Source: Geobacter sulfurreducens PCA (GTDB taxonomy: Bacteria; Desulfobacterota; Desulfuromonadia; Geobacterales; Geobacteraceae). Taken from it: DNA of 32,000 bases. Every line of letters begins with the position of its first letter. Positions within the stretch are counted from its first letter, which is position 1. A model generated the notes under the pieces. The model did no database searches. It worked only from the letters and a program-made list of their open reading frames with translations, and had not been told where the DNA came from. The stretch is from positions 870,001 to 902,000 of the forward strand of contig NC_002939.5 in assembly GCF_000007985.2 (NCBI RefSeq). Reading direction: 5' to 3'. The position numbers were made by a program, and so were the translations under genes. Positions 868 through 31,542 of this stretch are shown here, piece by piece.

Positions 868-3114
868 CTATCCCGTCACGGGCAGTTCGATGACGAACTT
901 GGTCCCCCGGGGCTCGTTGTCCCGCACCCGGATGAACCCGTGATGGTCGGTGATGATGCTGCTGACGATGGCGAGCCCCAGGCCGGTGCCCGACGCCTTG
1001 GTGGAGAAGTAGGGCTCGAAGACCCGCGTCTTGTCCTCCGGGGGGATGCCCGGCCCCGTATCGGCCACGGTCACCACCGCCATTTTCAGCTCCGGATCGA
1101 AGCGGCTCATGATCCGGACCTCGCCCGTCCCCCCCATGGCCGCCACGGCGTTGTCCAGGAGGTTGATGAAGACCCGCTTGATCTGGTCCCGGTCCAGCTG
1201 CAGCAGGGGCAGCCGGTCGTCGGCGCTGAAGCCGAACGCGACGCCGCGGTGCCCTTCCCGGAAGAGGGTGACTGCCTCGCGGATGACGGCGTTCAGGTCG
1301 TTGGGGGAGGGATGGGCCGCAGGCATCCGGGCGAAGTTGGAGAACTCGTCCACCAGGGTCTTCAGTTCGTCAACGGATTTGACGATCATGGCCGTGCACT
1401 CGTCAAAGACCCGGTCTTCGTCGCCGAAGCGGGGAAGGTAGCGCTTGCGCAGCCGTTGGGCCGAGAGCTGGATCGGGGTCAGCGGATTCTTGATCTCGTG
1501 GGCGATGCGGCGGGCCACCTCGCGCCAGGCGGCCATCCGCTGGGCCTTGATCAACTGGGTCATGTCGTCGAAGACCACCACGGTGCCGAGGAATTCGCCG
1601 CTCTCGTCCCGCAGGACCGACAGGTTGAAGAGGAACGTCGCCCGGCTGTCCCGCACCGGCACCGTGATCTGGCGGCTGATGCTGTCCTTCTTGGCCATGA
1701 CCATGTCCCGCAGGACCCCCTTCACGATGTCGAGCTGCTCTCCCTTGAGCACCTCCCGGAAGTTGTGGCCCACGGCCCGGGGCATGTCGATCTGCAGGAG
1801 CCGGGCCGCTGAGGGGTTGATGGTGGTTATCGTCCCCCCCCGGTCCACGGCGATGACCCCGGCAGCCACGTTGCGGAGCACAATTTCCATATGGCGCCGC
1901 CGCTGTTCCAGTTCCTGGTTGCTGCGCGACAACTCGTCGTTGGCGTTTTTCAGGGCCAGCTGGTTGCTTCGCAGGTCGTCGGTCATCTTGTTGAAGGCGG
2001 CCACCAGCATGCCCAGCTCATCGTCGGTCCGCTGGCCCAGGCGGATGTTCAGGTTTCCCTCGGCCACCTGACGGGTCGCTTCGGCCAGTTCCTGGATCGG
2101 CGTGGTGAGGCTGTTGGCCAGGTGGAGTCCGAACCAGACCGCCAGGAAGATAATCACCATGGTGATCAGGAACAGGGCCAGGATGTAGCCGGACCGGATG
2201 GGATTCTTCAGGATTTTGAGCTGACGGAACTGCTCGTAGGAGGCGGTGATCTCCCGCATTTTCTCCACCAGGGAGTAGGGGACGAAGTAGTTGACCACCA
2301 CCGCCCCCACCACCTCGTCGGCGCGGTAGGTGGAATAGATCGGCACGATGCCGCGGATGAGGTCGGCCTTACCCACCGTGTTGACCCGGGTCAGTTCCTT
2401 GCCGTTGAGCCCCTGCTTGATGTCTTCGGAGGAAGGGTTGGTGAACTCCCCCAGCGGGAGCCCCGGGTTCGCGGCGCGGACCAGCTCCTCATTCTGGGCC
2501 GAGTAGACCTCCACGATTCCCAGGTTGTACTCCTTCTGCTTCTGGCGGATCAGCTCCTTCATCCGCGGCAGGTTCTCGTCGTTGAGCAGGCGCTGGTCCC
2601 GGATGATGGCGCTGATCTGGTTACCGTAGTAGAGAGCGTTGGCCGCCGAATTCTTGTAGTAGGTCTGGGCAACCTCCAGCGATTCGGAGAGGGAGTTTTC
2701 GATCTGGGTGTTGAACCAGTTGCGGATGCTCTGGTTCACGTAGGTGGCCGAGACAAAGAACAGGAGCATGGTGGGGATGATGGAGAGGCTCACGAAGGCG
2801 ATGACGAGTTTCGTGCGCAGGTTGGCCCCCAGGGCCTTGCCCCGTCGCTCCATCAGAAGCTTTGCCACGTTGCGGAACAGAAGGTAGATGAGGAGGATGA
2901 TCAGCAGGATGATGACGTTGATGACGCCGAAGATCAGGAAGTTGCTCCCCATCGGCACATCGGAGCTGATGCGCGACAGGTGGATCTCCACCCGGGTCAG
3001 GATCAGGATCAGGAGCACCGACAGGGCGATGACGATCCCTTCGCGGCGCCGCTTGATCCGTTCCCGTTCGGCTGGTGTTGCTGTAGGCGTGCTGTCCGTG
3101 GTCCGTTTGTCCAT
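868..3114 (-). CDS. NtrY-like sensor histidine kinase (TM-HAMP-PAS-HisKA-HATPase)
   Basis: ORF 868..3150 (760 aa). It has N-terminal hydrophobic helices and a HAMP-like segment ([38 protein letters not shown]). It also has a PAS-like segment ([28 protein letters not shown]), H-box [18 protein letters not shown]-box [10 protein letters not shown] and G-boxes DTGPGIP and [10 protein letters not shown] set the start at ATG 3114 (MDKRTTD..) because the GTG at 3150 lies next to or inside the putative -10 box. Confidence 0.9.
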
Positions 3115-3150
3115 GGGGCGTCCGAGGTGTGGCGTAAATGCAACAGTCAC

Positions 3151-3179
3151 ACTCTAGCGGAACGCAGCGGATTATGCAA
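3151..3179 (-). promoter_or_regulatory. putative sigma-70 promoter for the NtrY-like kinase operon
   Basis: Minus strand reads TTGCAT (3179-3174), a 17-nt spacer, then TAGAGT (3156-3151). The predicted TSS is about 30 nt upstream of ATG 3114. Confidence 0.4.
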
Positions 3180-3214
3180 GGAGTCGATGTGGCGGGAGAA
3201 ATACGCCCCGGATG

Positions 3215-3242
3215 AAAAAACGGGGAGAGTGGCCTCTCCCCG
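3215..3242 (-). terminator. rho-independent terminator ending the mla operon
   Basis: Minus strand reads CGGGGAGAG-gcca-CTCTCCCCG (9-bp perfect GC-rich stem, 4-nt loop) followed immediately by TTTTTT. It lies 28 nt downstream of the mlaC stop. Confidence 0.8.
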
Positions 3243-3269
3243 CGTCGATGCTGCCAAGTGCCGTCACGC

Positions 3270-3872
3270 TTACGGCATGCTGATCTCCTTGTTCTTGGAG
3301 CGCAGTTTTTTTACCAGTTCCGCGTACCCCTGGTTGGTGATGATCTTGTTGAACTGGGTCCGGTAGTTGGAGACGAGGCTGACCCCTTCGATGACGATGT
3401 CGTAGACCACCCACTTGCCGCCCTTGAGCATGAGGCGGTAGTCGAGAGAGTACTCGTCGCGCCGGGCGGTGACGATCTTGCTCCTGACCTCGGCATAGTC
3501 GCCGTCGATGGCCTCCTTCAGGTAAACCACCTTCTCCTGGTTGTAGGACTCGATCTTGCCGGCGTAGGAGTTCTCCAGCAGATTTTCGAAGAGATCCACG
3601 AACTCCTTCTTCTCGGCGGCGTTCCGATCGCGCCAGTGGCGCGCCATGGCCCGCTGGGCCATTTCGGCGGAATCGAACACCGTGCCGATGGCCCGCTTGA
3701 TCTCCTGGCGGCGCCGTTTTTCGTTCTGGGGCTTTTTCAGTTCCTTGTCCGAGACGATTTTGATGACGTCGTCAACGGTCTTCTTCACCGTTTCGGTGGG
3801 CGAGGGCTGGGCCAGGGCGGTGCCGGAGACGGCCAGGGTGACGAAGAGGATGGGAAGCAGGATCCATTTCAT
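3270..3872 (-). CDS. mlaC: MlaC/Ttg2D-family periplasmic phospholipid-binding protein
   Basis: 200-aa ORF with signal peptide MKWILLPILFVTLAVSGTALA. The body shows the typical MlaC pattern: FDSAEMAQRAMARHW, FVDLFENLLENSYAGKIESY, KWVVYDIVIEGVSLVSNYRTQF. Confidence 0.9.
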   Translation of the reverse strand: MKWILLPILFVTLAVSGTALAQPSPTETVKKTVDDVIKIVSDKELKKPQNEKRRRQEIKRAIGTVFDSAEMAQRAMARHWRDRNAAEKKEFVDLFENLLENSYAGKIESYNQEKVVYLKEAIDGDYAEVRSKIVTARRDEYSLDYRLMLKGGKWVVYDIVIEGVSLVSNYRTQFNKIITNQGYAELVKKLRSKNKEISMP

Positions 3873-3893
3873 GGAGCAGAGACCTCCTGGTGC

Positions 3894-5252
3894 TCAGTTA
3901 AGCGGCGCCTGGCCCACGGCGTGGTCGAGCCGGGCCAGGGCCATGTTCTGGTTGTAGATGGCCTGGAAGTAGGCGGCGCGCATGCGGGCGTAGTTCTGGA
4001 GCCCGTCGAAGATCTCCTGGGCCGGTCCGACGCCGAAGTCATAGTTGGCCACGGAGGCCACCACCCAGCGCTTGGCGTTGGTGTACGCCTCTTTCATGGC
4101 GGTGGCGCTCGCCTCGGCCTCCCTGGCTTCGAGCCACGCCTTGCGGATCTGGAGCGGGATGAACTCGTCGGCGTAGGCCTTGGTGGAGAGGAGCCGGTTG
4201 TACTGGGCCCGTTCGCCCGCCACCTTGGCGCCGGTGATGCCGAAGTCAAGCTTCCACTTTACCCCCAGGGCGATGCCGGCCCAGACGTGGTTGAAATCGT
4301 CGGGCACAAAGGGATTGTCGATTCGGGTCCGCTTGTCGGCGTAGGCGGCAGAGACGTAGCCCCCCAGGAAGAGGTCGGGCCAGTAGTTGGCCTTTGCCGC
4401 CTCCACCAGGGCTTCGCGGGCCTTGATCCCCTCGTTGAGCTGGCGGAACTCCGGCCGCCGGGTCCGGGCCTCTTCCACGTAGGCAGTCAGGTCGCCCAGG
4501 GTGGCGCCGGCGGGCTGAAGCCGTTCGGCGTCGATGTCGACCGCTTCGGCGGGCGAGAGCCCCATGCGGGTCTTGAGGGCGGCCAGGGCAAGCTGCTCGC
4601 CTTTGGTGGCCTCCTCCAGGTATTTGGCCACTTCGCCCCGGAAGGCGTCGAGCTTGTAGATGTCCAGTTCGTCGGCGTTGGGGGATCCCTTGTCGATCAG
4701 CTTGCGGGCCTTGGTCTTGGCGTCGTCCAGAATGTCGCGCGTCTCCAGGACCAGTTCCCTCAGCTCCCGGGCCAGGAGGATGCCGTAGTAGTATTCCTTG
4801 ACCTGGAGCGCCACGTCGGTGCCCTTCTGGTCCTTCTTGGCCCGGTCAACCTCGATGCCGTGGCTGGCGGCCTTCATGTTCTCGGAAATCTTGCCGAAGG
4901 TGTAGAGGGGCTGGACCAGGGTTGCGTCGCCCCGCTGGAACCAGGTCCAGCGCTCGGTGTCGTTGATGCCGTCCGGCGAGTAGACCTGGTTGCCCCGTGC
5001 CTGGGGCACTGGTCCGATGAGGCCCAGGAATTCGATCTGGGGATAGCGGTGGGCCTTGGCCTCGTCCAGCTTGGCCGAGGTGGCGTCGATGTCCGCCTGG
5101 GCCTCGCCCAGTTCAGGGGCGGCGGTGAGCGCCTTTTTGATGCAGTCGTCGAGGGTGAGCTTCGTCCCGGCGCCGGCGTCGGCGCCCCACGCCGCTGCCA
5201 GCGGCAGGAGCGTTACGGCCAGTGCGAGAGCCGTCCGTCTGAGTGCCTTCAT
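3894..5252 (-). CDS. TolC-family outer membrane efflux protein embedded in the mla operon
   Basis: 452-aa ORF with signal peptide MKALRRTALALAVTLLPLAAAWG. It opens with the TolC-type LTLDDCIKKAL motif and has two repeated coiled-coil/beta halves (..YPQIEF.., ..YWPDLFLGGY..). Confidence 0.9.
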   Translation of the reverse strand: MKALRRTALALAVTLLPLAAAWGADAGAGTKLTLDDCIKKALTAAPELGEAQADIDATSAKLDEAKAHRYPQIEFLGLIGPVPQARGNQVYSPDGINDTERWTWFQRGDATLVQPLYTFGKISENMKAASHGIEVDRAKKDQKGTDVALQVKEYYYGILLARELRELVLETRDILDDAKTKARKLIDKGSPNADELDIYKLDAFRGEVAKYLEEATKGEQLALAALKTRMGLSPAEAVDIDAERLQPAGATLGDLTAYVEEARTRRPEFRQLNEGIKAREALVEAAKANYWPDLFLGGYVSAAYADKRTRIDNPFVPDDFNHVWAGIALGVKWKLDFGITGAKVAGERAQYNRLLSTKAYADEFIPLQIRKAWLEAREAEASATAMKEAYTNAKRWVVASVANYDFGVGPAQEIFDGLQNYARMRAAYFQAIYNQNMALARLDHAVGQAPLN

Positions 5253-5297
5253 GGTTGGTCCCTCCGTCAGGTGTCCGGATGAATTCTGCGTCCCGTT

Positions 5298-5747
5298 TTA
5301 TTCGACGTTCCCGTGGATGTACTTGCTCAGGAGCTCTTCCAGGTCCACGGTCGATTCCGTGTCGCGGATGCGGCCGCCGTCGGCCAGCAGCTTGTCCGCC
5401 CCCCCCGGCTTGAGCTTGATGAATTTGTCGCCGATGATGCCGCTGGTCCGAACCGAGGCGATCACGTCGTCCTGGAGCTTGACGCCGTCCCTGATCCTCA
5501 GGTAGACCCGTGCCCGGTCGTTGGAGGAGTCGAGCTCGATCCGGTCGACCCGACCGACCTCCACCCCGGCTATTTCGACGGTGGCGCCTTTTTTGAGGCC
5601 CGATACCGAGTCGAAATCCGCGGAGACCTGATAGTGGTCCCCCCCCAGCAACTCCATCTGTCCCAGCCTTACGGAGAGCCAGGCAAGGCAGATGATGCCG
5701 ACCAGGACAAATATGCCTACTATCAATTCGAGAGTGACTCTTTTCAT
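5298..5747 (-). CDS. mlaD: MlaD (single MCE domain, membrane anchored)
   Basis: 149-aa ORF with an N-terminal TM helix (LELIVGIFVLVGIICLAWLSV). This is followed by an MCE-domain pattern: YQVSADFDSVSGLKKGATVEIAGVEVGRVDRIEL..ARVYLRI. Confidence 0.9.
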   Translation of the reverse strand: MKRVTLELIVGIFVLVGIICLAWLSVRLGQMELLGGDHYQVSADFDSVSGLKKGATVEIAGVEVGRVDRIELDSSNDRARVYLRIRDGVKLQDDVIASVRTSGIIGDKFIKLKPGGADKLLADGGRIRDTESTVDLEELLSKYIHGNVE

Positions 5748-24493: not shown

Positions 24494-24937
24494 TTGAGAG
24501 GTCGGGTGCAGGCAATGACGCCACCGTTCCCATCCAGACAAGCCATGCTGGTGCGGGTTGTCGCAATGATAGCGTTGATCGTCCTCGCCGTAGCAACGGT
24601 CACTGCCGCAGGAGCCGGCGTCATCCCGCACCCTGCGGGCGGAGCCGTGGCTCATGCGGACGGGCACGCTCGGGGTGAGCATAGCCCCTGTCCCACTCCA
24701 TGCCACAACCCCGATTGCCACCGCTGCCACTGCACGACCACCATCCTCCCCGGCTCAGCGCTGGCCATGAGCCCTCCGGCCGTCCACTCGGTCGATTGGG
24801 GGGATGGTGACGGGTATCCGCCCGATCCGCCCCCCAGGTCGATATTTCACCCTCCACGTCCGGCATTGGCTACCCAGCACGGAGAATGTGAACCAGTCAA
24901 TGCTGCGGCCGGGTTTCCCCGGGAATGCCGGCCGTAA
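24494..24937 (+). CDS. second CzcI-like membrane-anchored His/Cys-rich protein
   Basis: 147-aa ORF with a TTG start (GGAG 9 nt upstream); alternative ATGs are at 24515 and 24545. TM/signal anchor VVAMIALIVLAVATVTAAGAG. His stretch HPAGGAVAHADGHARGEH. Cys cluster CPTPCHNPDCHRCHC. Later motif YPPDPPPRSIFHPPRP. Confidence 0.6.
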   Translation: MRGRVQAMTPPFPSRQAMLVRVVAMIALIVLAVATVTAAGAGVIPHPAGGAVAHADGHARGEHSPCPTPCHNPDCHRCHCTTTILPGSALAMSPPAVHSVDWGDGDGYPPDPPPRSIFHPPRPALATQHGECEPVNAAAGFPRECRP

Positions 24938-24964
24938 ATTACACAAATACGGAGAGTGAATACC

Positions 24965-25231
24965 ATGAAAAAGCTACTTGTTCTTGCGGCAATCGTATCC
25001 TTTGGCCTCAACGCCCTGCCTGTCTTCGCCCAACCCGAACCGACGGGCAAGGACGACCGCCTTGTGAACTGTACCTCCCGGGACAGCCTGCCCGAACGTA
25101 TCACCAGGCTGGAAAAAGAGATCGCCAAGGGGGAGCGCGTCTACACCGCGGCGGAACTGGACCGGCTCGAACGGAAGCGTGACGAGGCAAAGGACATGCT
25201 GCGCGTCCTGATGCTGGGGGGTAAGCGTTAG
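24965..25231 (+). CDS. small secreted coiled-coil protein
   Basis: ATG 24965 lies 8 nt after GGAGAG. Signal peptide MKKLLVLAAIVSFGLNALPVFA, then a charged helical region ERITRLEKEIAKGERVYTAAELDRLERKRDEAKDML. Confidence 0.7.
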   Translation: MKKLLVLAAIVSFGLNALPVFAQPEPTGKDDRLVNCTSRDSLPERITRLEKEIAKGERVYTAAELDRLERKRDEAKDMLRVLMLGGKR

Positions 25232-25302
25232 CCATCCGGGACGCAACCGCCTCCTGCCGGTATCTTCCACCTCCCGCCGGACTGCGGCGGGAGCGGCAGT
25301 AC

Positions 25303-25337
25303 AAAAGCCCATGGACGATGAGTCCATGGGCTTTATT
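25303..25337. terminator. bidirectional rho-independent terminator between convergent units
   Basis: AAAGCCCATGGAC-gatga-GTCCATGGGCTTT forms a 13-bp perfect stem flanked by A-run/T-run sequence on both sides. A second GC hairpin, CTCCCGCCG-gactg-CGGCGGGAG, lies at 25271-25293. Confidence 0.75.
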
Positions 25338-25433
25338 GTCAGCGGGTCACAGGTGGCTGCGTGGGCGTATGCCTCGTCAATCAGGCTCTCCTTCTGCGGC
25401 GGGCACGGCAGACCTGGCTGCGGAGAATCCTTG

Positions 25434-25592
25434 TCAGCCGGAAACAACGTTGTTGTTAAGCAGAATAATCCCATCCACGTTAGCAATCCAGATGGTCCCG
25501 CAGCGGGTGCATTCAAGCAGGTTATCGGCATATCCGTCGGAGTGCATGACGATTTCGATTGTCGTGCGATCGTTACAGATGGGGCATTTCAT
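25434..25592 (-). CDS. 52-aa zinc-ribbon protein (not in ORF track)
   Basis: My translation gives MKCPICNDRTTIEIVMHSDGYADNLLECTRCGTIWIANVDGIILLNNNVVSG, ending at TGA 25436-25434. A GGAAGGAGATGAAGG RBS region lies upstream. The pattern is CxxC-X21-CxxC. The gene lies 57 nt downstream of rnk on the same strand. Confidence 0.65.
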   Translation of the reverse strand: MKCPICNDRTTIEIVMHSDGYADNLLECTRCGTIWIANVDGIILLNNNVVSG

Positions 25593-25649
25593 GGTCCTTC
25601 ATCTCCTTCCCGTTGTGTGTCCGATGAGTCCTGATCTCCCGGCGATGCC

Positions 25650-26057
25650 TTACCGGGCGTGACTCCCCGCCGCCCCGGGCTGATAGAGAACCTCCTCGAT
25701 TCTGATTTTTTTGGCAAACGAACGGACTGCCAGGTCCAGGGTGTCGCCGGCGCCAAAGCCGAGAATCGCGGTCCCGATGGGTGACAGGATGGAGATTTTT
25801 CCTTCCGCAATGTTTGCGTCGTTGGGAAAGACCAACGATATGGTCATTTCCTTGTCGGCACGGAGATCGCGCAGCTTAACCCGCGAGTTCATGGTTACGA
25901 CATTCGGCGGAACATCCTTGGGATCGACGATCATGGCCGATGCCAGTTCGTCTTCCAGTTTCTGGAGATCCTTACGGTCGCGAAACGGTATCGTATCGAG
26001 AATCTCTTCAAGTCTTGAGAGATCGTCTTCTGTTACGTAGATAGCTCGTGTGTCCAT
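25650..26057 (-). CDS. rnk: Rnk (regulator of nucleoside diphosphate kinase; GreA/GreB-fold RNA polymerase secondary-channel factor)
   Basis: In ORF 25650..26072 the ATG at 26057 follows GAGGAGGAAAC. Close motif matches to E. coli Rnk as I recall it: PPNVVTMNSRVKLRDL, ISILSPIGTAILGFGAGD and a C-terminal YQPGAAG. Confidence 0.9.
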   Translation of the reverse strand: MDTRAIYVTEDDLSRLEEILDTIPFRDRKDLQKLEDELASAMIVDPKDVPPNVVTMNSRVKLRDLRADKEMTISLVFPNDANIAEGKISILSPIGTAILGFGAGDTLDLAVRSFAKKIRIEEVLYQPGAAGSHAR

Positions 26058-26123
26058 ATGTTTCCTCCTCATGATGATGAAGTGTAAGTTCTTGTATTCA
26101 GACCATGTGAGCGTGAAAAAGCC

Positions 26124-26534
26124 CTACATTCCTTTAGCGGACGTACTGTTCATGTCATTCCTCCTGTCCGATGCCCTGCGGGCTTCCCGCAACAGATACC
26201 CCACCAGGTTGGGAGATAAGGGCTTGTCGAAGATCCGTTCAATGCCCGCTTCGCTGATCTCTCGCCGCAGGGCGCGTGTCGGCAAGTCGGTATACATGAA
26301 AACGGTGAGTCCGGGACTGACCCTGCGGGCTCGGCGGGCCAGCGTGATGGCATCCATGTCCGGCATCACCATGTCGGTGAGCATGATTTCAAAGGGCATC
26401 GCGTGCAGGGTGGCGAGGGCCTCTTCTCCGCTGCCGACACGATGGACTGTGGTGTTGTTTCTGTCGAAAAGCTCTTCCAGGATAGTCAGGTCACAGTCGT
26501 TCTCCACGGCAAACAATATGTTCGAAGCATCCAT
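26124..26534 (-). CDS. single-domain response regulator (receiver only)
   Basis: 136-aa ORF. Receiver landmarks: acidic pocket AVENDCD, phospho-acceptor IMLTDMVMPDMD, VFMYTD (Thr) and FDKPL (Lys). Confidence 0.88.
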   Translation of the reverse strand: MDASNILFAVENDCDLTILEELFDRNNTTVHRVGSGEEALATLHAMPFEIMLTDMVMPDMDAITLARRARRVSPGLTVFMYTDLPTRALRREISEAGIERIFDKPLSPNLVGYLLREARRASDRRNDMNSTSAKGM

Positions 26535-26567
26535 TGCATTATTCCTCTCTCTGATGTCTCATTGCCG

Positions 26568-26846
26568 CTACCCGGTCAGGTTCGGGCAGAAGGTGTCATC
26601 GGTCATGCCCGGGCGGTATCCTCCATGACAGAAGGTTCCGCTGCCGGCACGTCGCCTCCGGCCGGTAACGTGGTTTTGATGGGCATCGACTCCACCGGTG
26701 ATGTCGTGTTCGACACCCCCGGCAGTTTTGCATTGTTTACTGCACATACCGCAGGCCAGCGGTGCTCTGGCCAGTCTCCAGCCCTTGGATGACAATCGTG
26801 TACGCATTGCAGTATTCTCCGTCGTCAGTGCGCGAGGCCCGGGCAC
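26568..26846 (-). CDS. candidate Cys-rich small protein (79-92 aa), frame and start uncertain
   Basis: ORF-track entry; an internal ATG at 26807 has GGAG 9 nt upstream. It contains CGMCSKQC, FCHGGY and FCPN. Its codon bias is weak. It overlaps the end of the 32-codon ORF below in another frame. Confidence 0.35.
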   Translation of the reverse strand: MPGPRALTTENTAMRTRLSSKGWRLARAPLACGMCSKQCKTAGGVEHDITGGVDAHQNHVTGRRRRAGSGTFCHGGYRPGMTDDTFCPNLTG

Positions 26847-26923
26847 GCCGTAAGCGATCGACCCGTCCAGCAGGTTCCGGGCCCGGACGGATCAACGGTG
26901 CGCACCCTGTCGTTCACTTCCAT
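26825..26923 (-). CDS. 32-codon ORF with strong RBS (possibly the interrupted 5' part of a longer gene)
   Basis: GAGGAGG lies 7 nt upstream of ATG 26923. The ORF reads MEVNDRVRTVDPSGPGTCWTGRSLTACPGLAH and ends at TGA 26827-26825. It lies 38 nt downstream of the pseudo-receiver stop. Confidence 0.3.
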   Translation of the reverse strand: MEVNDRVRTVDPSGPGTCWTGRSLTACPGLAH

Positions 26924-26961
26924 ATCCCGGCCTCCTCGCCTTCAGTGCGTTCCCGCAGCCG

Positions 26962-27360
26962 CTACGGCAGCGATGCCTGTCTCCTTGAAGGATTCCCGGG
27001 TCCGTTACCCGGACTCGCCATTCTGGCAAGCACGGCAACCACCTCCGCCGGGTTCTGGTCCAGGTACGTCATGAATCGCGGTTCCAGGCAGTGCCCCCGG
27101 GAGACCGTCTCGGCTCGCCTGTCGGGGAGAACCAGGACGGTCTTTGTGTCCCGGAAAGCGGTTCGCATGGTAAGCAGGCGTTCCAGCTCATCCCTGTCCC
27201 GAACTACCAGAACGGTGATCGCGGGTTGCTCCAGTATCCGCCGGAACCGTTCAGCGAGCGCTGCCATTGATCGATACACCTCAAGGCCGGGAATAACCCC
27301 CGAAACCGTTTTTCGAATATCCTCGCCAACTCTTTCGGGGGCGTAGAAAAGCACATCCAT
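26962..27360 (-). CDS. receiver-like (pseudo-receiver) domain protein
   Basis: In ORF 26962..27366 the ATG at 27360 is preceded by GGAGCGAGG. The beta-alpha periodicity is like CheY (VLFYAP / LEVYR / ITVLVV / TVLVLP / FMTYL). However, the DD pocket is AP-E and the conserved Lys position reads LDQNP. Confidence 0.7.
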   Translation of the reverse strand: MDVLFYAPERVGEDIRKTVSGVIPGLEVYRSMAALAERFRRILEQPAITVLVVRDRDELERLLTMRTAFRDTKTVLVLPDRRAETVSRGHCLEPRFMTYLDQNPAEVVAVLARMASPGNGPGNPSRRQASLP

Positions 27361-27403
27361 AGGCAATAACCTCGCTCCGTGTCTGAGTATTCAATGACGC
27401 TAA

Positions 27404-27419
27404 AGCACGGCCTGTGCCA
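27404..27419 (-). promoter_or_regulatory. sigma-54 (RpoN) promoter
   Basis: Minus strand reads CTGGCAC-AGGCC-GTGCT. This matches TGGCAC-N5-TTGCW at all but one position, with correct GG-N10-GC spacing. The predicted TSS is about 34 nt upstream of ATG 27360. Confidence 0.7.
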
Positions 27420-27439
27420 GAAAGGCGTGATGTTGATTG

Positions 27440-27460
27440 TCTATTAATATCAAATAGATA
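27440..27460. promoter_or_regulatory. AT-rich IHF-like bending site between UAS and sigma-54 promoter
   Basis: TATCAAATAGATA (27448-27460) matches WATCAANNNNTTR except at one position. It overlaps the inverted repeat TCTATT-N7-AATAGA (27440-27458). Confidence 0.35.
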
Positions 27461-27511
27461 TGCTGGCGGGAGCCTCGGGGGAGGCAGAGAATTTTCCTGT
27501 CAGGCGGGAAT

Positions 27512-27550
27512 GGTTCCAGTCGTACAGGAATGCTCCGTACGACTGGAACC
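27512..27550. promoter_or_regulatory. perfect 14-bp inverted repeat: candidate enhancer (UAS) for the adjacent sigma-54 activator, or a U-less terminator hairpin
   Basis: GGTTCCAGTCGTAC-N11-GTACGACTGGAACC is centred about 115 bp upstream of the sigma-54 -24 element. It begins 11 nt after the stop of the activator gene. No T-tract is present on either side. Confidence 0.55.
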
Positions 27551-27560
27551 GCAGGGTGGT

Positions 27561-28961
27561 CTATGCCGGTTTAATTCCGTGCTTACTGAGAAGGGCATAC
27601 AAGCGGGAGAGTGAAAGTCCGGCAATGCGGCACGCTTCCTTGAGATCATTGTCGGTGAGGGAGAGCAAGTCGCGCAGGTATTGTTTTTCGGCCTGGGCGA
27701 ATACCGTTTCGCGAAAGTCCTGGAGCCGGGGCAGCGATTGGGTGATCCGCTGGGGCGCTGCACCGGGCTCTGGTTGCTCCACTGCTGCCCGCGCGATCTG
27801 TATGCGGATGTCGAGGGGCAGGTGCTGGGGGAAGAGGGTCGGTTCCAGGCGTGCTGATGCGAGTGCCCGCTCCAGCGTATTGACCAGTTCACGCACGTTG
27901 CCGGGCCACGAGTGCTGGGCCAGGGTGTCTAGGAATTCCGGCGCAAACCCTTTCGGCGCTAATCCATAGCGTTCGCAGAGTCTGTCCACATGGTGACGCG
28001 CCAACTCCTTGATGTCCTCCGGGCGCTCCCGAAGTGGCGGAAGCTCGATGGCGAACGCACGGAGCCGGAACAGCAGGTCGTCACGGAAACCGCCATCGCG
28101 CACCATCTGGTCGAGATCCCGGTTGGTCGCGGAGATGAGACGAAAATCGCTCACCTGCTCGCGCTGACTGCCAAGGGGACGGAACCGGCGTTCCTGGAGG
28201 ACCCGCAGGAACGCCTTCTGGACCGAAAGGGGCAGCTCGCCGACCTCGTCCAGAAAGAGCGAACCACCGTGCGCCTGCTGGATGAGCCCTTCCCGGGCTT
28301 TTTCCGCGCCCGTAAAAGTCCCTTTTTCGTGACCGAACAAGAGGCTTTCCACCAGGGTTTCCGGCAGTGCGGCACAGTCAACCACCACGAAGTTGCCTTC
28401 GGCCCGGCGGCTGTTGCTGTGGATGGCCCGGGCAAAGAGTTCCTTACCTGTGCCGGTTTCTCCGGTAATCATCACAGAGGTGTCGCCGGCGGCCGCCTGG
28501 GCCACCAGGTCCAGGCAGTCCCTGATCTTGTGGCTGTTGCCGACGATATCGTGACGCTTGAGGGCGGTGACGCTCGCACCGCGGCTGGCAATTTTCTCCT
28601 GCCGGTATTGGAGTGCTCGTACGAGATGCAGGGTCATCGCCTTGAGCGAGGTCCCCTTTTCTATGTAGTCCCAGGCTCCGCTCCTGATGGCCAGTTCGGC
28701 TGAGTCCGGGTTGCCGTAGCCGGTGATGATGATCACCTCCGGTTCGGCCGGGGTCCGCTGGATATCCGGCAGAATGTCGAGGCCGTTCCCATCCGGCATG
28801 CTCACATCGAGCAGGACCACGTCAAATGCTCCAGTCGAGGCTTTTTCAAGACCTTCCCTGAGGGTCGGGGCGCTGTCCACCTGGTGCCCCATCCGCTTTA
28901 CCATGTGCCACAGGGAAGAGCGCATGGAGTCGTCATCGTCGATAATAAGGATTGCAGCCAT
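27561..28961 (-). CDS. sigma-54-dependent Fis-family response regulator (receiver - AAA+ - HTH)
   Basis: 466-aa ORF. Receiver ILIIDDDDSM..VVLLDVSMPDG. Walker A GETGTGKE. Sigma-54 contact loop GHEKGTFTGA. Walker B LFLDEVGEL. C-terminal HTH LKEACRIAGLSLSRLYALLSKHGI. Confidence 0.93.
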   Translation of the reverse strand: MAAILIIDDDDSMRSSLWHMVKRMGHQVDSAPTLREGLEKASTGAFDVVLLDVSMPDGNGLDILPDIQRTPAEPEVIIITGYGNPDSAELAIRSGAWDYIEKGTSLKAMTLHLVRALQYRQEKIASRGASVTALKRHDIVGNSHKIRDCLDLVAQAAAGDTSVMITGETGTGKELFARAIHSNSRRAEGNFVVVDCAALPETLVESLLFGHEKGTFTGAEKAREGLIQQAHGGSLFLDEVGELPLSVQKAFLRVLQERRFRPLGSQREQVSDFRLISATNRDLDQMVRDGGFRDDLLFRLRAFAIELPPLRERPEDIKELARHHVDRLCERYGLAPKGFAPEFLDTLAQHSWPGNVRELVNTLERALASARLEPTLFPQHLPLDIRIQIARAAVEQPEPGAAPQRITQSLPRLQDFRETVFAQAEKQYLRDLLSLTDNDLKEACRIAGLSLSRLYALLSKHGIKPA

Positions 28962-28967
28962 GGTTTC

Positions 28968-31253
28968 TTATACTCTCCTGTCCAATATCCGTCGAACAGC
29001 CCGGGCCATTTCGTCTCTGTCAACCGGCTTCCGCAGGACGTCGGCAATGCCTGCCGAACGGGCTTGTTCAAGGATCGTTCGTTCATCCTGGTCGATAAAG
29101 CCGGAGCAAAGCAGAACCGGCACATCCGGCCGAAGGCGGCGTAGTGCACGGGTCAGTTCCGTTCCGGTCAGCAGGGGCATGGTCTGATCGGTGATAATCA
29201 GGTCGAAGAGCCCGGGTTGAGCGGTGAACAGCTTCAGCGCTTCGACACTGCCCGTGGTGGCAACAACGTCGTAGCCGAGCCGCCGTAACATCTCGCCGGT
29301 GGTGGCGACCAGGTCTTCTTCGTCATCCACATAGAGAATCCTCTCGTCCCCCCCGGCGGGTGCACCGTCAGGCGCGGCCTCCGGCTGTTCCTCGATCTGT
29401 TCCGCCCTCGGAATCAGGACCCGCACGGTCGTTCCGCTGCCGGGCTCGCTCTCCACCACGATCCCCCCGCCATGGTCCTTTACGATACCATAGACAACGG
29501 GCAGACCCAGTCCTGTTCCCCGTCCCTGCTCCTTCGTGGTGAAAAACGGATCGAAGATACGCTCCAGAACCTCGCTTCCCATGCCGTGTCCCGTATCTTT
29601 GACCGAAAGTTCCACATAGGGGCCGGCATGCAGGTCGGGATGAGTGCCGGTTATATCATCATGGAGGGTGACCGCGGTCAGGGTGACTTCGAGCATCCCC
29701 ACCTTGCCGTGCATCGCATGGGCCGCATTGGTGCAAAGGTTCACGATGACCTGATGGATCTGGGTCGGGTCGATCGAAGCCATTGCGTCTTCGCAGGAGA
29801 TGGTGGGACGAATGTCGATGGTTGTTGGCAGGGAAGCCCGCAGCAGTTTCAGGCATTCCTTTACGATCGGGGCTATTCGCACCGTTTGCCGTTTTTGCTC
29901 GCCTTGCCTGCTGAAGGCGAGAATCTGCGTGACCAGGTTCCTGCCGCGTTCGGCCGCATTGAGCACTATTTCAAGCAGCTCCGGGTTGCTTGCCCCCTCT
30001 TTTGCGTCATCAAGAGCCAACTCGGTACTGATAATTATGGCCCCCAGAATATTGTTGAAATCATGGGCGATCCCTCCGGCCAGTGTCCCCACGGCTTCCA
30101 TTTTCTGTGCGTGGCGCAATTGGCTTTCCAGCTGCATCTCCGGCGTCACGTCACGGACAATGGCAACATAGCTTGCGACGGTGCCGGACGTCTCCCTGAC
30201 CGGGGAAAGAATTACCTCGACATCCACATTGCTGCCGTCGTCCCGTACGATGACATATCTTCCGGTTCGCGTCCTCGCCTGGGCGACAACGTCGGTCAGT
30301 GCCTGAATGAATGGAGATCCGAAGAGCGATTTGCCGTAGTTGTGAATGCGCTTATTGATGATACCGGCGTGGTCTGTCCCGCTGATTCGTTCAAATGCCT
30401 GATTGACGTAGCGTATCAGCCCGTCGGGGGCAAAAAGGACAACCCCCTGCATGAACTGGTCAAGAACAGCGGCGAGAACCGCATGCTGTTTTTCAAGCTG
30501 GCATTTCTCGGCCTGAACCCGGAGCGTCGTAATCCCATGCGCGAGGTTGCCGGCCAGCTTCCGCAAGAGCTCGACCTCTTCCGGGGCAAAGGCGTCGGCA
30601 CCGTCGGCGTATATGACGAGGGCGCCGAAGGCCCCTTCGTCGTCGGACAGCGGCAGCGATAGCACGGAAGAGGTGATGCGCCTGAAGAGTTCGCCGGCAC
30701 CCTGTCTGGCATTGATGTTCCGCACGACATGAACGCCGGCAGCGAGCGCTTCCCGTGCCATCCCCTGTCCCATGTCCGAGTCGAGTTGAAACTTTGCATC
30801 CGTAACCGTACTTTCCCAGCACGCCACCGGCCGCACCGATGCCACTCCATCGGCCTCCGCAAACCAGGCCCATGCTTGACGATACCCTCCGTGTTCCACC
30901 GCAATCCGGCATACATCCTTGATGAACCCCTGCTCGTCGTCGGCACGCAGGAGAGCCTGGTCGCACTCGCTGAGGGTCGCAAGCGCACGGTTGGTTCTCC
31001 GCAGCGACTCCTGCGAGCGTATGATGGTCGCTTCTCTGCGGCGGACCAGCAGAAACAGCAGAACCGCCGACACGCCAATCAGAAGCACCCCGTTCAACGC
31101 GGTCAGCCACGCCGCCACTGGCTGCCCCCCGAATAGGGTGCCGATCAGGGCATTCGCCACCACCATCCACGCTCCGCCGGCCAGGGCATAGATGAGCGCG
31201 ATCGACAGGGGAGTCAGTCTTGCTTTGAACACAGAAGGAATCGTTATGGGCAT
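28968..31253 (-). CDS. hybrid sensor histidine kinase (2 TM - GAF-like - PAS - HisKA - HATPase - receiver)
   Basis: ORF 28968..31397. The likely start is ATG 31253 (MPITIPSVFKARLTPLSIALIYALAGGAWMVV..), judged by the typical distance to TM1. H-box GGIAHDFNNILGAI, N-box NLCTNAAHAM, G-boxes DTGHGMG and GTGLGLPVV. C-terminal receiver ILYVDDEEDL..LIITDQTMP..RKP. Confidence 0.9.
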   Translation of the reverse strand: MPITIPSVFKARLTPLSIALIYALAGGAWMVVANALIGTLFGGQPVAAWLTALNGVLLIGVSAVLLFLLVRRREATIIRSQESLRRTNRALATLSECDQALLRADDEQGFIKDVCRIAVEHGGYRQAWAWFAEADGVASVRPVACWESTVTDAKFQLDSDMGQGMAREALAAGVHVVRNINARQGAGELFRRITSSVLSLPLSDDEGAFGALVIYADGADAFAPEEVELLRKLAGNLAHGITTLRVQAEKCQLEKQHAVLAAVLDQFMQGVVLFAPDGLIRYVNQAFERISGTDHAGIINKRIHNYGKSLFGSPFIQALTDVVAQARTRTGRYVIVRDDGSNVDVEVILSPVRETSGTVASYVAIVRDVTPEMQLESQLRHAQKMEAVGTLAGGIAHDFNNILGAIIISTELALDDAKEGASNPELLEIVLNAAERGRNLVTQILAFSRQGEQKRQTVRIAPIVKECLKLLRASLPTTIDIRPTISCEDAMASIDPTQIHQVIVNLCTNAAHAMHGKVGMLEVTLTAVTLHDDITGTHPDLHAGPYVELSVKDTGHGMGSEVLERIFDPFFTTKEQGRGTGLGLPVVYGIVKDHGGGIVVESEPGSGTTVRVLIPRAEQIEEQPEAAPDGAPAGGDERILYVDDEEDLVATTGEMLRRLGYDVVATTGSVEALKLFTAQPGLFDLIITDQTMPLLTGTELTRALRRLRPDVPVLLCSGFIDQDERTILEQARSAGIADVLRKPVDRDEMARAVRRILDRRV

Positions 31254-31542
31254 GGGATCGTCTTTTCCGGGCCTACCGTTTTGTCTTGGAGAATACATGA
31301 TGATTGCACCGCAGACCGACGGCGGGTTCATCGTTCCGGTGAGTCTCGCTACTCCTGCTAACCGGCTCCACTTCTGACCAGCACGGTTGCACGGCACATA
31401 CCAATGCCAGCCCTACGTCAACCCGCTGTTATTTCAACGCATTGCATTTCGCTACGTTGTGTCTGTCCGGAATTGTGTTCCTGCCACCAAGGGAGCCTCC
31501 TGCGTGGCAGGAAAATTCTTGCCGAACAGGACAGGCATCAGG

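Follow-up and report, generated by a model that had tools for sequence, protein, structure and literature searches.

Why does a gene for Rnk lie behind an enhancer-dependent promoter, and which of the genes around it belong together? The question is raised by a stretch of 32,000 nucleotides (nt) from Geobacter sulfurreducens PCA, referred to here as the window, in which the locus GSU0842 to about GSU0835 encodes a hybrid sensor kinase, an NtrC-type activator, a pseudo-receiver, a receiver, Rnk and a small putative zinc-ribbon protein, all on the minus strand. A preliminary description of the locus had placed these genes, the promoter and a terminator correctly, and the gene order is identical in three complete G. 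sulfurreducens genomes. Parts of the picture were already public: GSU0842 has been described as a kinase, GSU0841 as a sigma-54-dependent response regulator and GSU0837 as a response regulator (PMC5743811), the promoter prediction and the gene annotations, including rnk-2, are on record, and the type of circuit is itself conventional. Our preferred reading, to which we assign a probability of roughly 0.55, is that the locus represents a stress-type two-component/sigma-54 circuit of the Desulfobacterota in which the invariant product is a receiver mimic, GSU0840, and Rnk is a recurrent output.

The hybrid sensor histidine kinase GSU0842 (28968..31253, minus strand) matches the Pfam models for GAF, PAS, HisKA, HATPase_c and a C-terminal Response_reg, and with the H-box AHDFNN in its translation it carries the features by which a hybrid kinase is recognised (HisKA, HATPase_c and a C-terminal receiver). 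Its start is ambiguous between the ATG at 31253, the NCBI start 21 nt downstream and a GTG at 31397, to which the open reading frame (ORF) stays open; as read from the translation, the N-terminus consists of two hydrophobic helices with nearly no periplasmic loop. Only 6 nt separate its stop from the start of the NtrC-type sigma-54 activator GSU0841 (27561..28961, minus strand), in which Pfam finds Response_reg, Sigma54_activat (3.2e-65) and AAA_lid, followed by a C-terminal helix-turn-helix-like tail. The Walker A sequence GETGTGKE, the sequence LFLDEVGE and the GTFTGA loop in its translation identify it as an enhancer-binding AAA+ protein. The HTH_8 model gave no match to the window activator at E<=0.1 in the Pfam scan, and weak matches in the activators of two homologous loci, L107 and L109. 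The 6-nt gap, the GAF-PAS hybrid kinase and the receiver-AAA+ activator are thus as first described. The seven activators from other loci that were checked by tblastn (L007, L026, L029, L101, L104, L106 and L107) are 56-97% identical to GSU0841, the orthologues in the six loci other than L007 being 56-66% identical.

This two-component pair directly adjoins a sigma-54 (-24/-12) promoter, TGGCACaggccGTGCT (27404..27419, minus strand), the 3' end of which lies 44 nt upstream of the ATG of GSU0840 at 27360. The interval between activator and GSU0840 is 200 nt with this ATG and 194 nt, the length given in the preliminary description, only with a TTG start at 27366. With the form TGGCAC-N5-GTGCT, TGGCACaggccGTGCT is the sole match with one mismatch to TGGCAC-N5-TTGCW in the 32 kb of the window. 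When up to two mismatches were allowed, 7 matches were found and 12.9 were expected, which is no enrichment, therefore the motif count by itself proves nothing. What gives the promoter weight is instead where it lies and that orthologous loci conserve it: an equivalent -24/-12 promoter precedes the orthologous gene in L007, L016, L017, L026, L029, L101, L104, L106 and L098, with weaker variants in L107 and L097, mostly 40-80 nt before the start of the GSU0840-family gene. Exactly the TGGCACaggccGTGCT site had been predicted for GSU0840 with a PromScan score of 88 (Leang et al. 2009). Efforts to delete rpoN in G. sulfurreducens are reported to have failed (PMC4641369, citing Leang et al. 2009).

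A putative upstream activator site with TTCCTG..CAGGAA half-sites is located at 27491..27550 (minus strand), about 90-130 nt upstream of the promoter. It contains an inverted repeat of 16/17 nt, GGTTCCAGTCGTACGG..CCTGTACGACTGGAACC (window 27512-27550; hairpin z -4.9), which is near-perfect, starts 10 nt past the activator stop and has no U-tract. Palindromes of the form TCCTG..CAGGA precede the promoter by about 100 nt in the window, L007, L016, L026, L101, L097 and L098, and in L007, which has two sigma-54 promoters, both are preceded by the same upstream element. GSU0841 would be expected to bind the upstream repeats. The right arm of the inverted repeat is kept before every sigma-54 promoter of the module in Geobacter, and the left arm only at sites where the element comes immediately behind the activator gene; the repeat may have a double role, as a 3' hairpin of the mRNA and as a putative binding site for the activator.

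The arrangement extends well beyond Geobacter. The loci sampled for GSU0840 were the window, L007, L016/L017, L026, L029, L101, L104, L106, L107, L109 and the short contigs L097/L098, in which only the C-terminus of the activator is visible. Wherever upstream sequence is available among them, the GSU0840-family gene follows an NtrC-type activator at a distance of 200-370 nt. What is conserved is therefore a unit of the activator, usually with a hybrid PAS/GAF kinase, followed by a sigma-54 promoter and a GSU0840-family protein. What comes after this unit is cargo specific to the lineage, namely Rnk, Hsp20/Usp or CheW-MCP. In L101, an unrelated metagenome-assembled genome (MAG), the order is hybrid kinase, activator, 320 nt, family member, 68 nt and Rnk. 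L104 and L107 have kinase, activator, family member, CheW and MCP, and in L106 kinase, activator and family member are followed by a kinase, a receiver, MCP, STAS and CheA. In L109 (Syntrophorhabdaceae), activator and family member precede CBM48, HATPase, DUF488, hemerythrin, Usp and Hsp20 genes, and a 1.1-kb contig, L103, holds Hsp20 followed by a family member.

The chemotaxis-type genes (CheW, MCP, STAS, CheA and receivers) found after the family gene, at L104 7533-9814, L107 7416-10493, L106 7462-14477 and L029 1-1865, hint that a GSU0840-type protein could be linked to chemosensory arrays in those lineages. In L016/L017, at about 1350-5344, the activator region and the pseudo-receiver's sigma-54 promoter are separated by an inserted block, made up of two genes for DUF5666 lipoprotein-like proteins together with cytochrome b561, an OmpR-type regulator and a histidine kinase.

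The preliminary description had treated the seven genes from the kinase to the zinc ribbon as one package and had named conserved synteny beyond close relatives as the comparative check. By that measure the package is not conserved, because the full set of pseudo-receiver, spacer ORF, receiver, Rnk and zinc ribbon was found only in L016 and L017, both of the G. sulfurreducens clade, among the 80 best Rnk loci. In these two loci a gene for a MarC membrane protein lies between the receiver and Rnk.

GSU0840 (26962..27360, minus strand; 132 amino acids (aa)) is a hypothetical gene of 399 nt in the published list (Leang et al. 2009), and its annotated form is shorter, with 101 aa that are 100% identical to the window protein over that length. 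A word-indexed search returned 7 close homologues and a pattern scan of metagenomes 5 loci; a HMMER search of 1.84 billion representatives gave 1,826 clusters (at 50% identity) at E<=1e-3 and 750 at E<=1e-10. The best 150 listed matches are 91-184 aa long, except one of 351 aa. Neither GSU0840 nor any of the other family sequences in the 78-sequence alignment was matched by a Pfam or NCBIfam model, and profile searches with GSU0840 against PDB sequences gave nothing meaningful. The analysis thus brings to light a sizeable family for which no curated model was found.

A first AlphaFold run, made with the 7 close homologues, gave a predicted local distance difference test score (pLDDT) of 56 and uninformative Foldseek matches. 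It was superseded by a run with the 78-sequence alignment, in which the model reached a pLDDT of 88.6 and a predicted template modelling score (pTM) of 0.81 and has a CheY-like (beta/alpha)5 fold. The top PDB matches of this model in Foldseek are the receivers NarL, DesR, HupR, MicA, Spo0A and RcsB and the pseudo-receiver N-terminal domain of CpaE, with E-values of 2e-3 to 4e-2 and a template modelling score of about 0.6. The label "pseudo-receiver", used from the start for this protein, is therefore right as a description of the fold only (AlphaFold, Foldseek), because the model is CheY-like but there is no membership of the receiver family by sequence (Pfam, NCBIfam, hhalign).

The conservation pattern of the family is its own. 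GSU0840 would not be phosphorylatable at the usual site; the position at the end of beta3, where a receiver has its phospho-acceptor, is Asp in 16/78 family sequences, and conservation is likewise absent from the acidic loop behind beta1. The near-invariant residues are L78-P79-D80, T85, G89-H90, P94-R95-F96, Y99 and D101, with Y6 and R81 further conserved, and the near-invariant ones line beta4, alpha4 and beta5. The beta4-alpha4-beta5 face is the usual dimerisation face of receivers. Because of its universal position behind the activator and this conserved surface, GSU0840 could mimic a receiver and exert feedback on either the activator or the hybrid kinase. A stronger form of this proposal is tentative, and we consider it somewhat unlikely to hold in full: the GSU0840 family would be a dedicated receiver mimic, the first sigma-54-dependent product of every member of one NtrC-type activator clade, which would heterodimerise via its beta4-alpha4-beta5 face with the receiver of the activator or of the hybrid kinase and so set the gain of the circuit, and in several lineages the same circuit would deliver Rnk.

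The identification of GSU0836 (25650..26057, minus strand) as Rnk was borne out, and the gene is already annotated as rnk-2 (PMC7962754). It encodes a GreA-fold protein with an Rnk_N short coiled coil and a GreA_GreB C-terminal domain (Pfam 9.5e-12 and 2.7e-18), scores 118.6 against a cutoff of 109 with the NCBIfam equivalog NF004396, and matches the PDB entries 2pn0 (5.5e-24) and, over the full length, 3bmb, the Rnk of Escherichia coli (5.4e-16). The ORF is 140 aa long and the annotated start lies 5 codons downstream. Compared with all other aligned Rnk sequences, those of the G. sulfurreducens clade are without 3 residues at the tip of the coiled coil (columns about 57-62). Rnk of E. coli binds RNA polymerase (structure 3BMB; Lamour et al. 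2008, per PMC4598747) and competes with Gre/DksA at the secondary channel of the polymerase, and as of a 2015 review no regulator, phenotype or function was known for it (PMC4598747). Our literature search on sigma-54, enhancer-binding proteins and Rnk found no paper linking them.

The Rnk family is widespread, with about 50% identity across Nitrospira, Verrucomicrobiota, Acidobacteriota and others. Its linkage to the conserved cassette takes three types of arrangement across the Desulfobacterota. In Geobacter, Rnk lies within the operon, and in L101 it comes straight after the family member. Two of the 80 Rnk loci, from MAGs of the Desulfobacteraceae (L026) and the Syntrophobacteraceae (L029), have Rnk in divergent orientation beside an orthologous kinase-activator pair, and the identities to the window are 41-49% for the hybrid kinase, 65% for the activator and 42% for the GSU0840 homologue. 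The linkage of Rnk to the cassette therefore holds beyond close relatives (L101, L026 and L029). With one or two rnk genes in a genome of about 4,000 genes, we estimate the chance of Rnk being placed within 8 kb of a given locus at <1% per lineage, a figure of our own that applies to a small sample. Three arrangements among about seven sampled lineages therefore make chance unlikely.

A second Rnk paralogue is present in Geobacter relatives (L007 8312-9524 and L017 30-1011), paired with a Host_attach (PF10116)/baeRF_family12 protein. In L007 it lies behind the second sigma-54 promoter, beside the same activator, and the sequence of L017 ends just upstream of the promoter. The order of the paralogue and the Host_attach gene is inverted between L007 and L017, and the pair is absent from the window.

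Taken as a mechanism, the preferred reading would run as follows. The membrane-anchored GSU0842 would sense a signal via its GAF and PAS domains, probably a cytoplasmic or membrane stress, and would phosphorylate the receiver of GSU0841. The activator would then bind the TCCTG..CAGGA-type repeats about 100 nt upstream and open the sigma-54 promoter at 27404-27419. GSU0840 would be the first, invariant product, a receiver mimic whose feedback would reach the activator or the hybrid kinase. Transcription in G. sulfurreducens would most likely run on past the decayed remains of an Hsp20 gene, cover GSU0837, rnk-2 and the zinc-ribbon gene and end at the bidirectional terminator. Such read-through would in turn raise the level of a secondary-channel competitor, the extra Rnk competing with GreA/DksA for RNA polymerase's secondary channel. 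Of this scheme, the gene content, the promoter, the conserved triad of activator, promoter and GSU0840 and the recurrence of Rnk are the parts that have been shown.

The layout of the genes is compatible with a single transcript from GSU0840 to the zinc-ribbon gene, which we infer from the sequence. As the preliminary description had stated, Rnk lies downstream of the enhancer-dependent promoter. No terminator intervenes, and from GSU0840 to where the zinc-ribbon gene ends, weak intragenic matches were the only terminator-like sites. The gaps from receiver to Rnk to zinc ribbon are 66 and 57 nt in the window, and those of the L017 operon, from the pseudo-receiver to the zinc ribbon, are 33-95 nt.

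A stress context would fit the Hsp20 gene in the operon of relatives, the Hsp20, Usp and hemerythrin genes in L109 and the Hsp20 gene in L103. Published expression data point in the same direction and were counted in favour of the preferred reading. After encapsulation in silica gel for 96 h, GSU0837 was the most induced gene (8.2x), and GSU0842 (4.3x) and GSU0841 (3.7x) were in the top 30 (PMC5743811). In ihfA-1 and ihfB-2 mutants rnk-2 was up 3.7-6.6x together with two ATP-independent (Hsp20-type) chaperones (PMC7962754). GSU0837 is lower under Pd(II)-reducing conditions.

Several results weigh against the proposed circuit. For the receiver mimic, hhalign comparison of GSU0840 with receiver domains gave probabilities of 3.7% and 0.2%, so that no kinship is detectable at the level of sequence. 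For Rnk as an output, 76/80 of the surveyed Rnk loci have neither the pseudo-receiver nor a sigma-54 promoter (no sigma-54 motif within 400 nt upstream of Rnk in these 76), and in L026 and L029 a sigma-54 promoter or TCCTG..CAGGA element before the Rnk gene on the opposite strand was sought and none was found. For the transcript, GSU0840 is listed as a single-gene unit (Leang et al. 2009), 427 nt (26535-26961) separate it from GSU0837 in the window, and the published lists show GSU0837 induced without GSU0840 or rnk-2 (PMC5743811) and rnk-2 induced without GSU0837 or GSU0840 (PMC7962754). These lists are thresholded and neither prove nor exclude a single transcript; they allow for separate promoters.

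It is on these last observations that the best-surviving alternative draws. There could be two transcription units, with only GSU0840 being sigma-54-dependent and with GSU0837, Rnk and the zinc ribbon expressed from a promoter in the spacer or before rnk, outside the control of the activator. The single-gene listing, the length of the spacer and the parting of GSU0837 from rnk-2 in the expression lists are all in its favour, and in L026 and L029 Rnk clearly stands as a unit of its own. However, the spacer itself argues against this alternative. The same interval is 805 nt long in L016, L017 and a metagenome contig, L096, where it contains an intact Hsp20 gene of 143 aa (L016 6083-6514, L017 6084-6515; Pfam HSP20 2.9e-12 in L017) that fills it with gaps of 33-64 nt. 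In the window an Hsp20 remnant is left at 26825..26923 (minus strand), consisting of a ribosome-binding site, an ATG and about 7 codons fused to the final few codons and the region of the stop. This remnant, together with the intact gene in relatives, therefore indicates an internal deletion of about 400 nt in G. sulfurreducens, so that the spacer is a decayed coding region. Moreover, the minus strand of the 427-nt spacer yielded neither a sigma-70-like promoter nor a terminator, and Rnk of L101 follows the pseudo-receiver after only 68 nt. Two transcription units are unlikely in our view.

The spacer also holds the Cys-rich ORF (26568..26807, or to 26846 in the longer form, minus strand; 79 aa from the ATG), which the preliminary description had counted among five small genes. 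The pseudo-receiver, the receiver, Rnk and the 52-aa CxxC protein of that count are real, but the Cys-rich ORF is a doubtful gene. It was not called by the NCBI annotation and has no match among the protein families of Pfam and NCBIfam. Although its ATG, TAG and CxxC are retained in L016/L017, its amino acid identity to them is 48-51%, compared with 78-82% for the neighbouring genes, and its ratio of non-synonymous to synonymous changes (pN/pS) is 0.66-0.81, compared with 0.32-0.37 for GSU0840, GSU0837, Rnk and the zinc ribbon at the same divergence. The other five frames at this position have a pN/pS of 0.6-1.4. As the constraint is near neutral despite the kept ORF and CxxC, its status as a protein was left doubtful.

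For the 427-nt spacer, a riboswitch and a known small RNA were ruled out, as Rfam gave no match in scans of the whole window at gathering thresholds and of 25200-27600 in E-value mode. A structured spacer RNA was likewise not accepted, with single-sequence folding at z -1.75 and -0.04. RNAalifold did produce a structure of 68 pairs, 11 of them compensatory, that was better than slid controls, with the structure derived from the same four sequences, which represent two lineages only. Between G. sulfurreducens strains (window and L001 10307-11139), GSU0837 is 96% identical in amino acids and the spacer 94% in nucleotides; GSU0840, Rnk and the zinc ribbon are 100% identical in amino acids, so that GSU0837 and the spacer diverge faster. 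GSU0837 is also in the table of single-nucleotide polymorphisms that differ between PCA and KN400 (PMC3495685).

Another explanation accepts the cassette of kinase, activator and pseudo-receiver and regards the receiver, Rnk and the zinc ribbon as having accumulated behind it by rearrangement, with no common function. The cargo does differ by lineage, and the neighbourhood has been rearranged repeatedly, by the deletion of Hsp20, an insertion or deletion of MarC, the relocation of the zinc ribbon and the two-component/DUF5666/cytochrome b561 block between activator and pseudo-receiver in L016/L017. Against such a mosaic, Rnk has been recruited on at least 3 occasions, with differing arrangements, and in the Geobacter relatives a single locus has taken it up twice, which is improbable by chance; we consider this explanation quite unlikely. 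Very unlikely is the operon centred on Rnk that the preliminary description had put forward. There a phosphorelay would induce Rnk, and the effect of Rnk on RNA polymerase would be adjusted by the receiver, the pseudo-receiver and the zinc ribbon through binding or modification of Rnk. In its favour, the genes share one orientation and lie close together in the window and in L016/L017, and there is no Hpt domain near the hybrid kinase, so several receivers could be fed. Against it, Rnk has the receiver and the zinc ribbon beside it in the G. sulfurreducens clade alone, homologues of the zinc ribbon in other places have no link to Rnk, the pseudo-receiver tracks the activator and occurs with CheW-MCP or Usp/Hsp20 without Rnk, MarC separates receiver and Rnk in L016/L017, the great majority of Rnk loci lack these partners, and nothing was found in support of receivers modulating Rnk.

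With the circuit led by GSU0840 as the preferred reading, the remaining genes of the locus can be described more briefly. GSU0837 (26124..26534, minus strand) is a single-domain response regulator with a Pfam Response_reg score of 49.4 bits against a cutoff of 30.2. It keeps D54, T82 and K104-P105, and the N-terminal acidic pair is partly retained (E11, D13); calling it a canonical receiver was accurate. The last gene (25434..25592, minus strand) encodes the 52-aa CxxC...CxxC protein, a putative zinc ribbon with CPIC and CTRC, which is restricted to Geobacter, its best family scores being below threshold (CPxCG_zf 23.2 vs 27.2 in Pfam, TIGR02098 18.2 vs 20.9).

The zinc ribbon is not tied to Rnk, since its homologues in other Geobacter, with 72%, 62% and 52% identity, are stand-alone genes (L008 10001-10150, L011 8549-8701 and L014 10001-10153), located about 400 nt from a divergent radical-SAM gene and with rodA/mrdA alongside in two of them. 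No Rnk or receiver gene was found near these stand-alone Geobacter genes, and a sigma-54 promoter or TCCTG..CAGGA element before them was sought and none was found. They have the conserved upstream motifs TTCTAAAATAGCGAT and CTCTATAGTTGA in common, which suggest a different, sigma-70-type control. In G. sulfurreducens, the hypothetical gene GSU2077, a possible zinc-ribbon paralogue beside rodA (GSU2078), rises together with rnk-2 in the ihf mutants (PMC7962754).

The unit ends at a bidirectional intrinsic terminator (25301..25334, both strands) with a GC-rich stem of 12/13 base pairs flanked by A and T runs. The hairpin is stable on both strands (folding free energy -26 and -31 kcal/mol, z -6.7 and -7.5), in agreement with the earlier assignment, and is shared with a convergent gene of 91 aa at 24956..25231. 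On one side the locus is flanked by genes for aconitase, a Rieske protein, a CitMHS transporter and a pyridine-nucleotide disulphide oxidoreductase, and on the other by an RND efflux system of the czc type. Close to these efflux genes there is a His/Cys/Pro-rich ORF of 147 aa (window 24494-24937, plus strand) with one hydrophobic segment and no family match, flanked by a lipoprotein-like gene and the operon terminator, which is annotated in 1/3 complete genomes (140 aa in L001).

If the stronger form of the proposal is correct, an enhancer-dependent pathway would reprogramme RNA polymerase via its secondary channel in stress, and this would be the first physiological context for Rnk. The locus in any case has rnk behind a dedicated kinase/activator pair in a genetically tractable organism, with an inducing condition (silica, for the pair and GSU0837), a deletable regulator and candidate partners. 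The GSU0840 family is, in addition, a candidate new feedback component of two-component/sigma-54 signalling.

Among known systems, GSU0836 has the same architecture as E. coli Rnk, and it differs in that its gene lies behind an enhancer-dependent promoter and that relatives carry a second, sigma-54-linked paralogue. GSU0840 resembles the pseudo-receivers, such as the N-terminal domains of CpaE (4DAD, 4DN6, 4MYR) and KaiA, in having a CheY-like fold with no conserved phospho-acceptor. Unlike those domains, with which no sequence similarity is detectable, it is a stand-alone protein of about 130 aa with motifs of its own (LPDR, T, GH, PRF, Y and D), encoded downstream of a sigma-54 activator. 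The closest parallels to the circuit as a whole are NtrC-family systems of E. coli whose sigma-54 target starts with a small feedback protein, ZraS/ZraR-zraP and PspF-pspA. The activator beside a -24/-12 promoter with upstream repeats, the sensor kinase, the small non-enzymatic first product and the stress context are all alike; however, GSU0840 would be a cytoplasmic CheY-fold protein and not a periplasmic chaperone like ZraP or a coiled coil like PspA, its kinase is a hybrid, and its feedback is one that we infer. In Myxococcus, a hybrid kinase and a sigma-54 activator, HsfB/HsfA, control a heat-shock gene. The target genes differ, but the use of a hybrid kinase with an NtrC-type activator for stress genes in a deltaproteobacterium is shared with the circuit proposed here.

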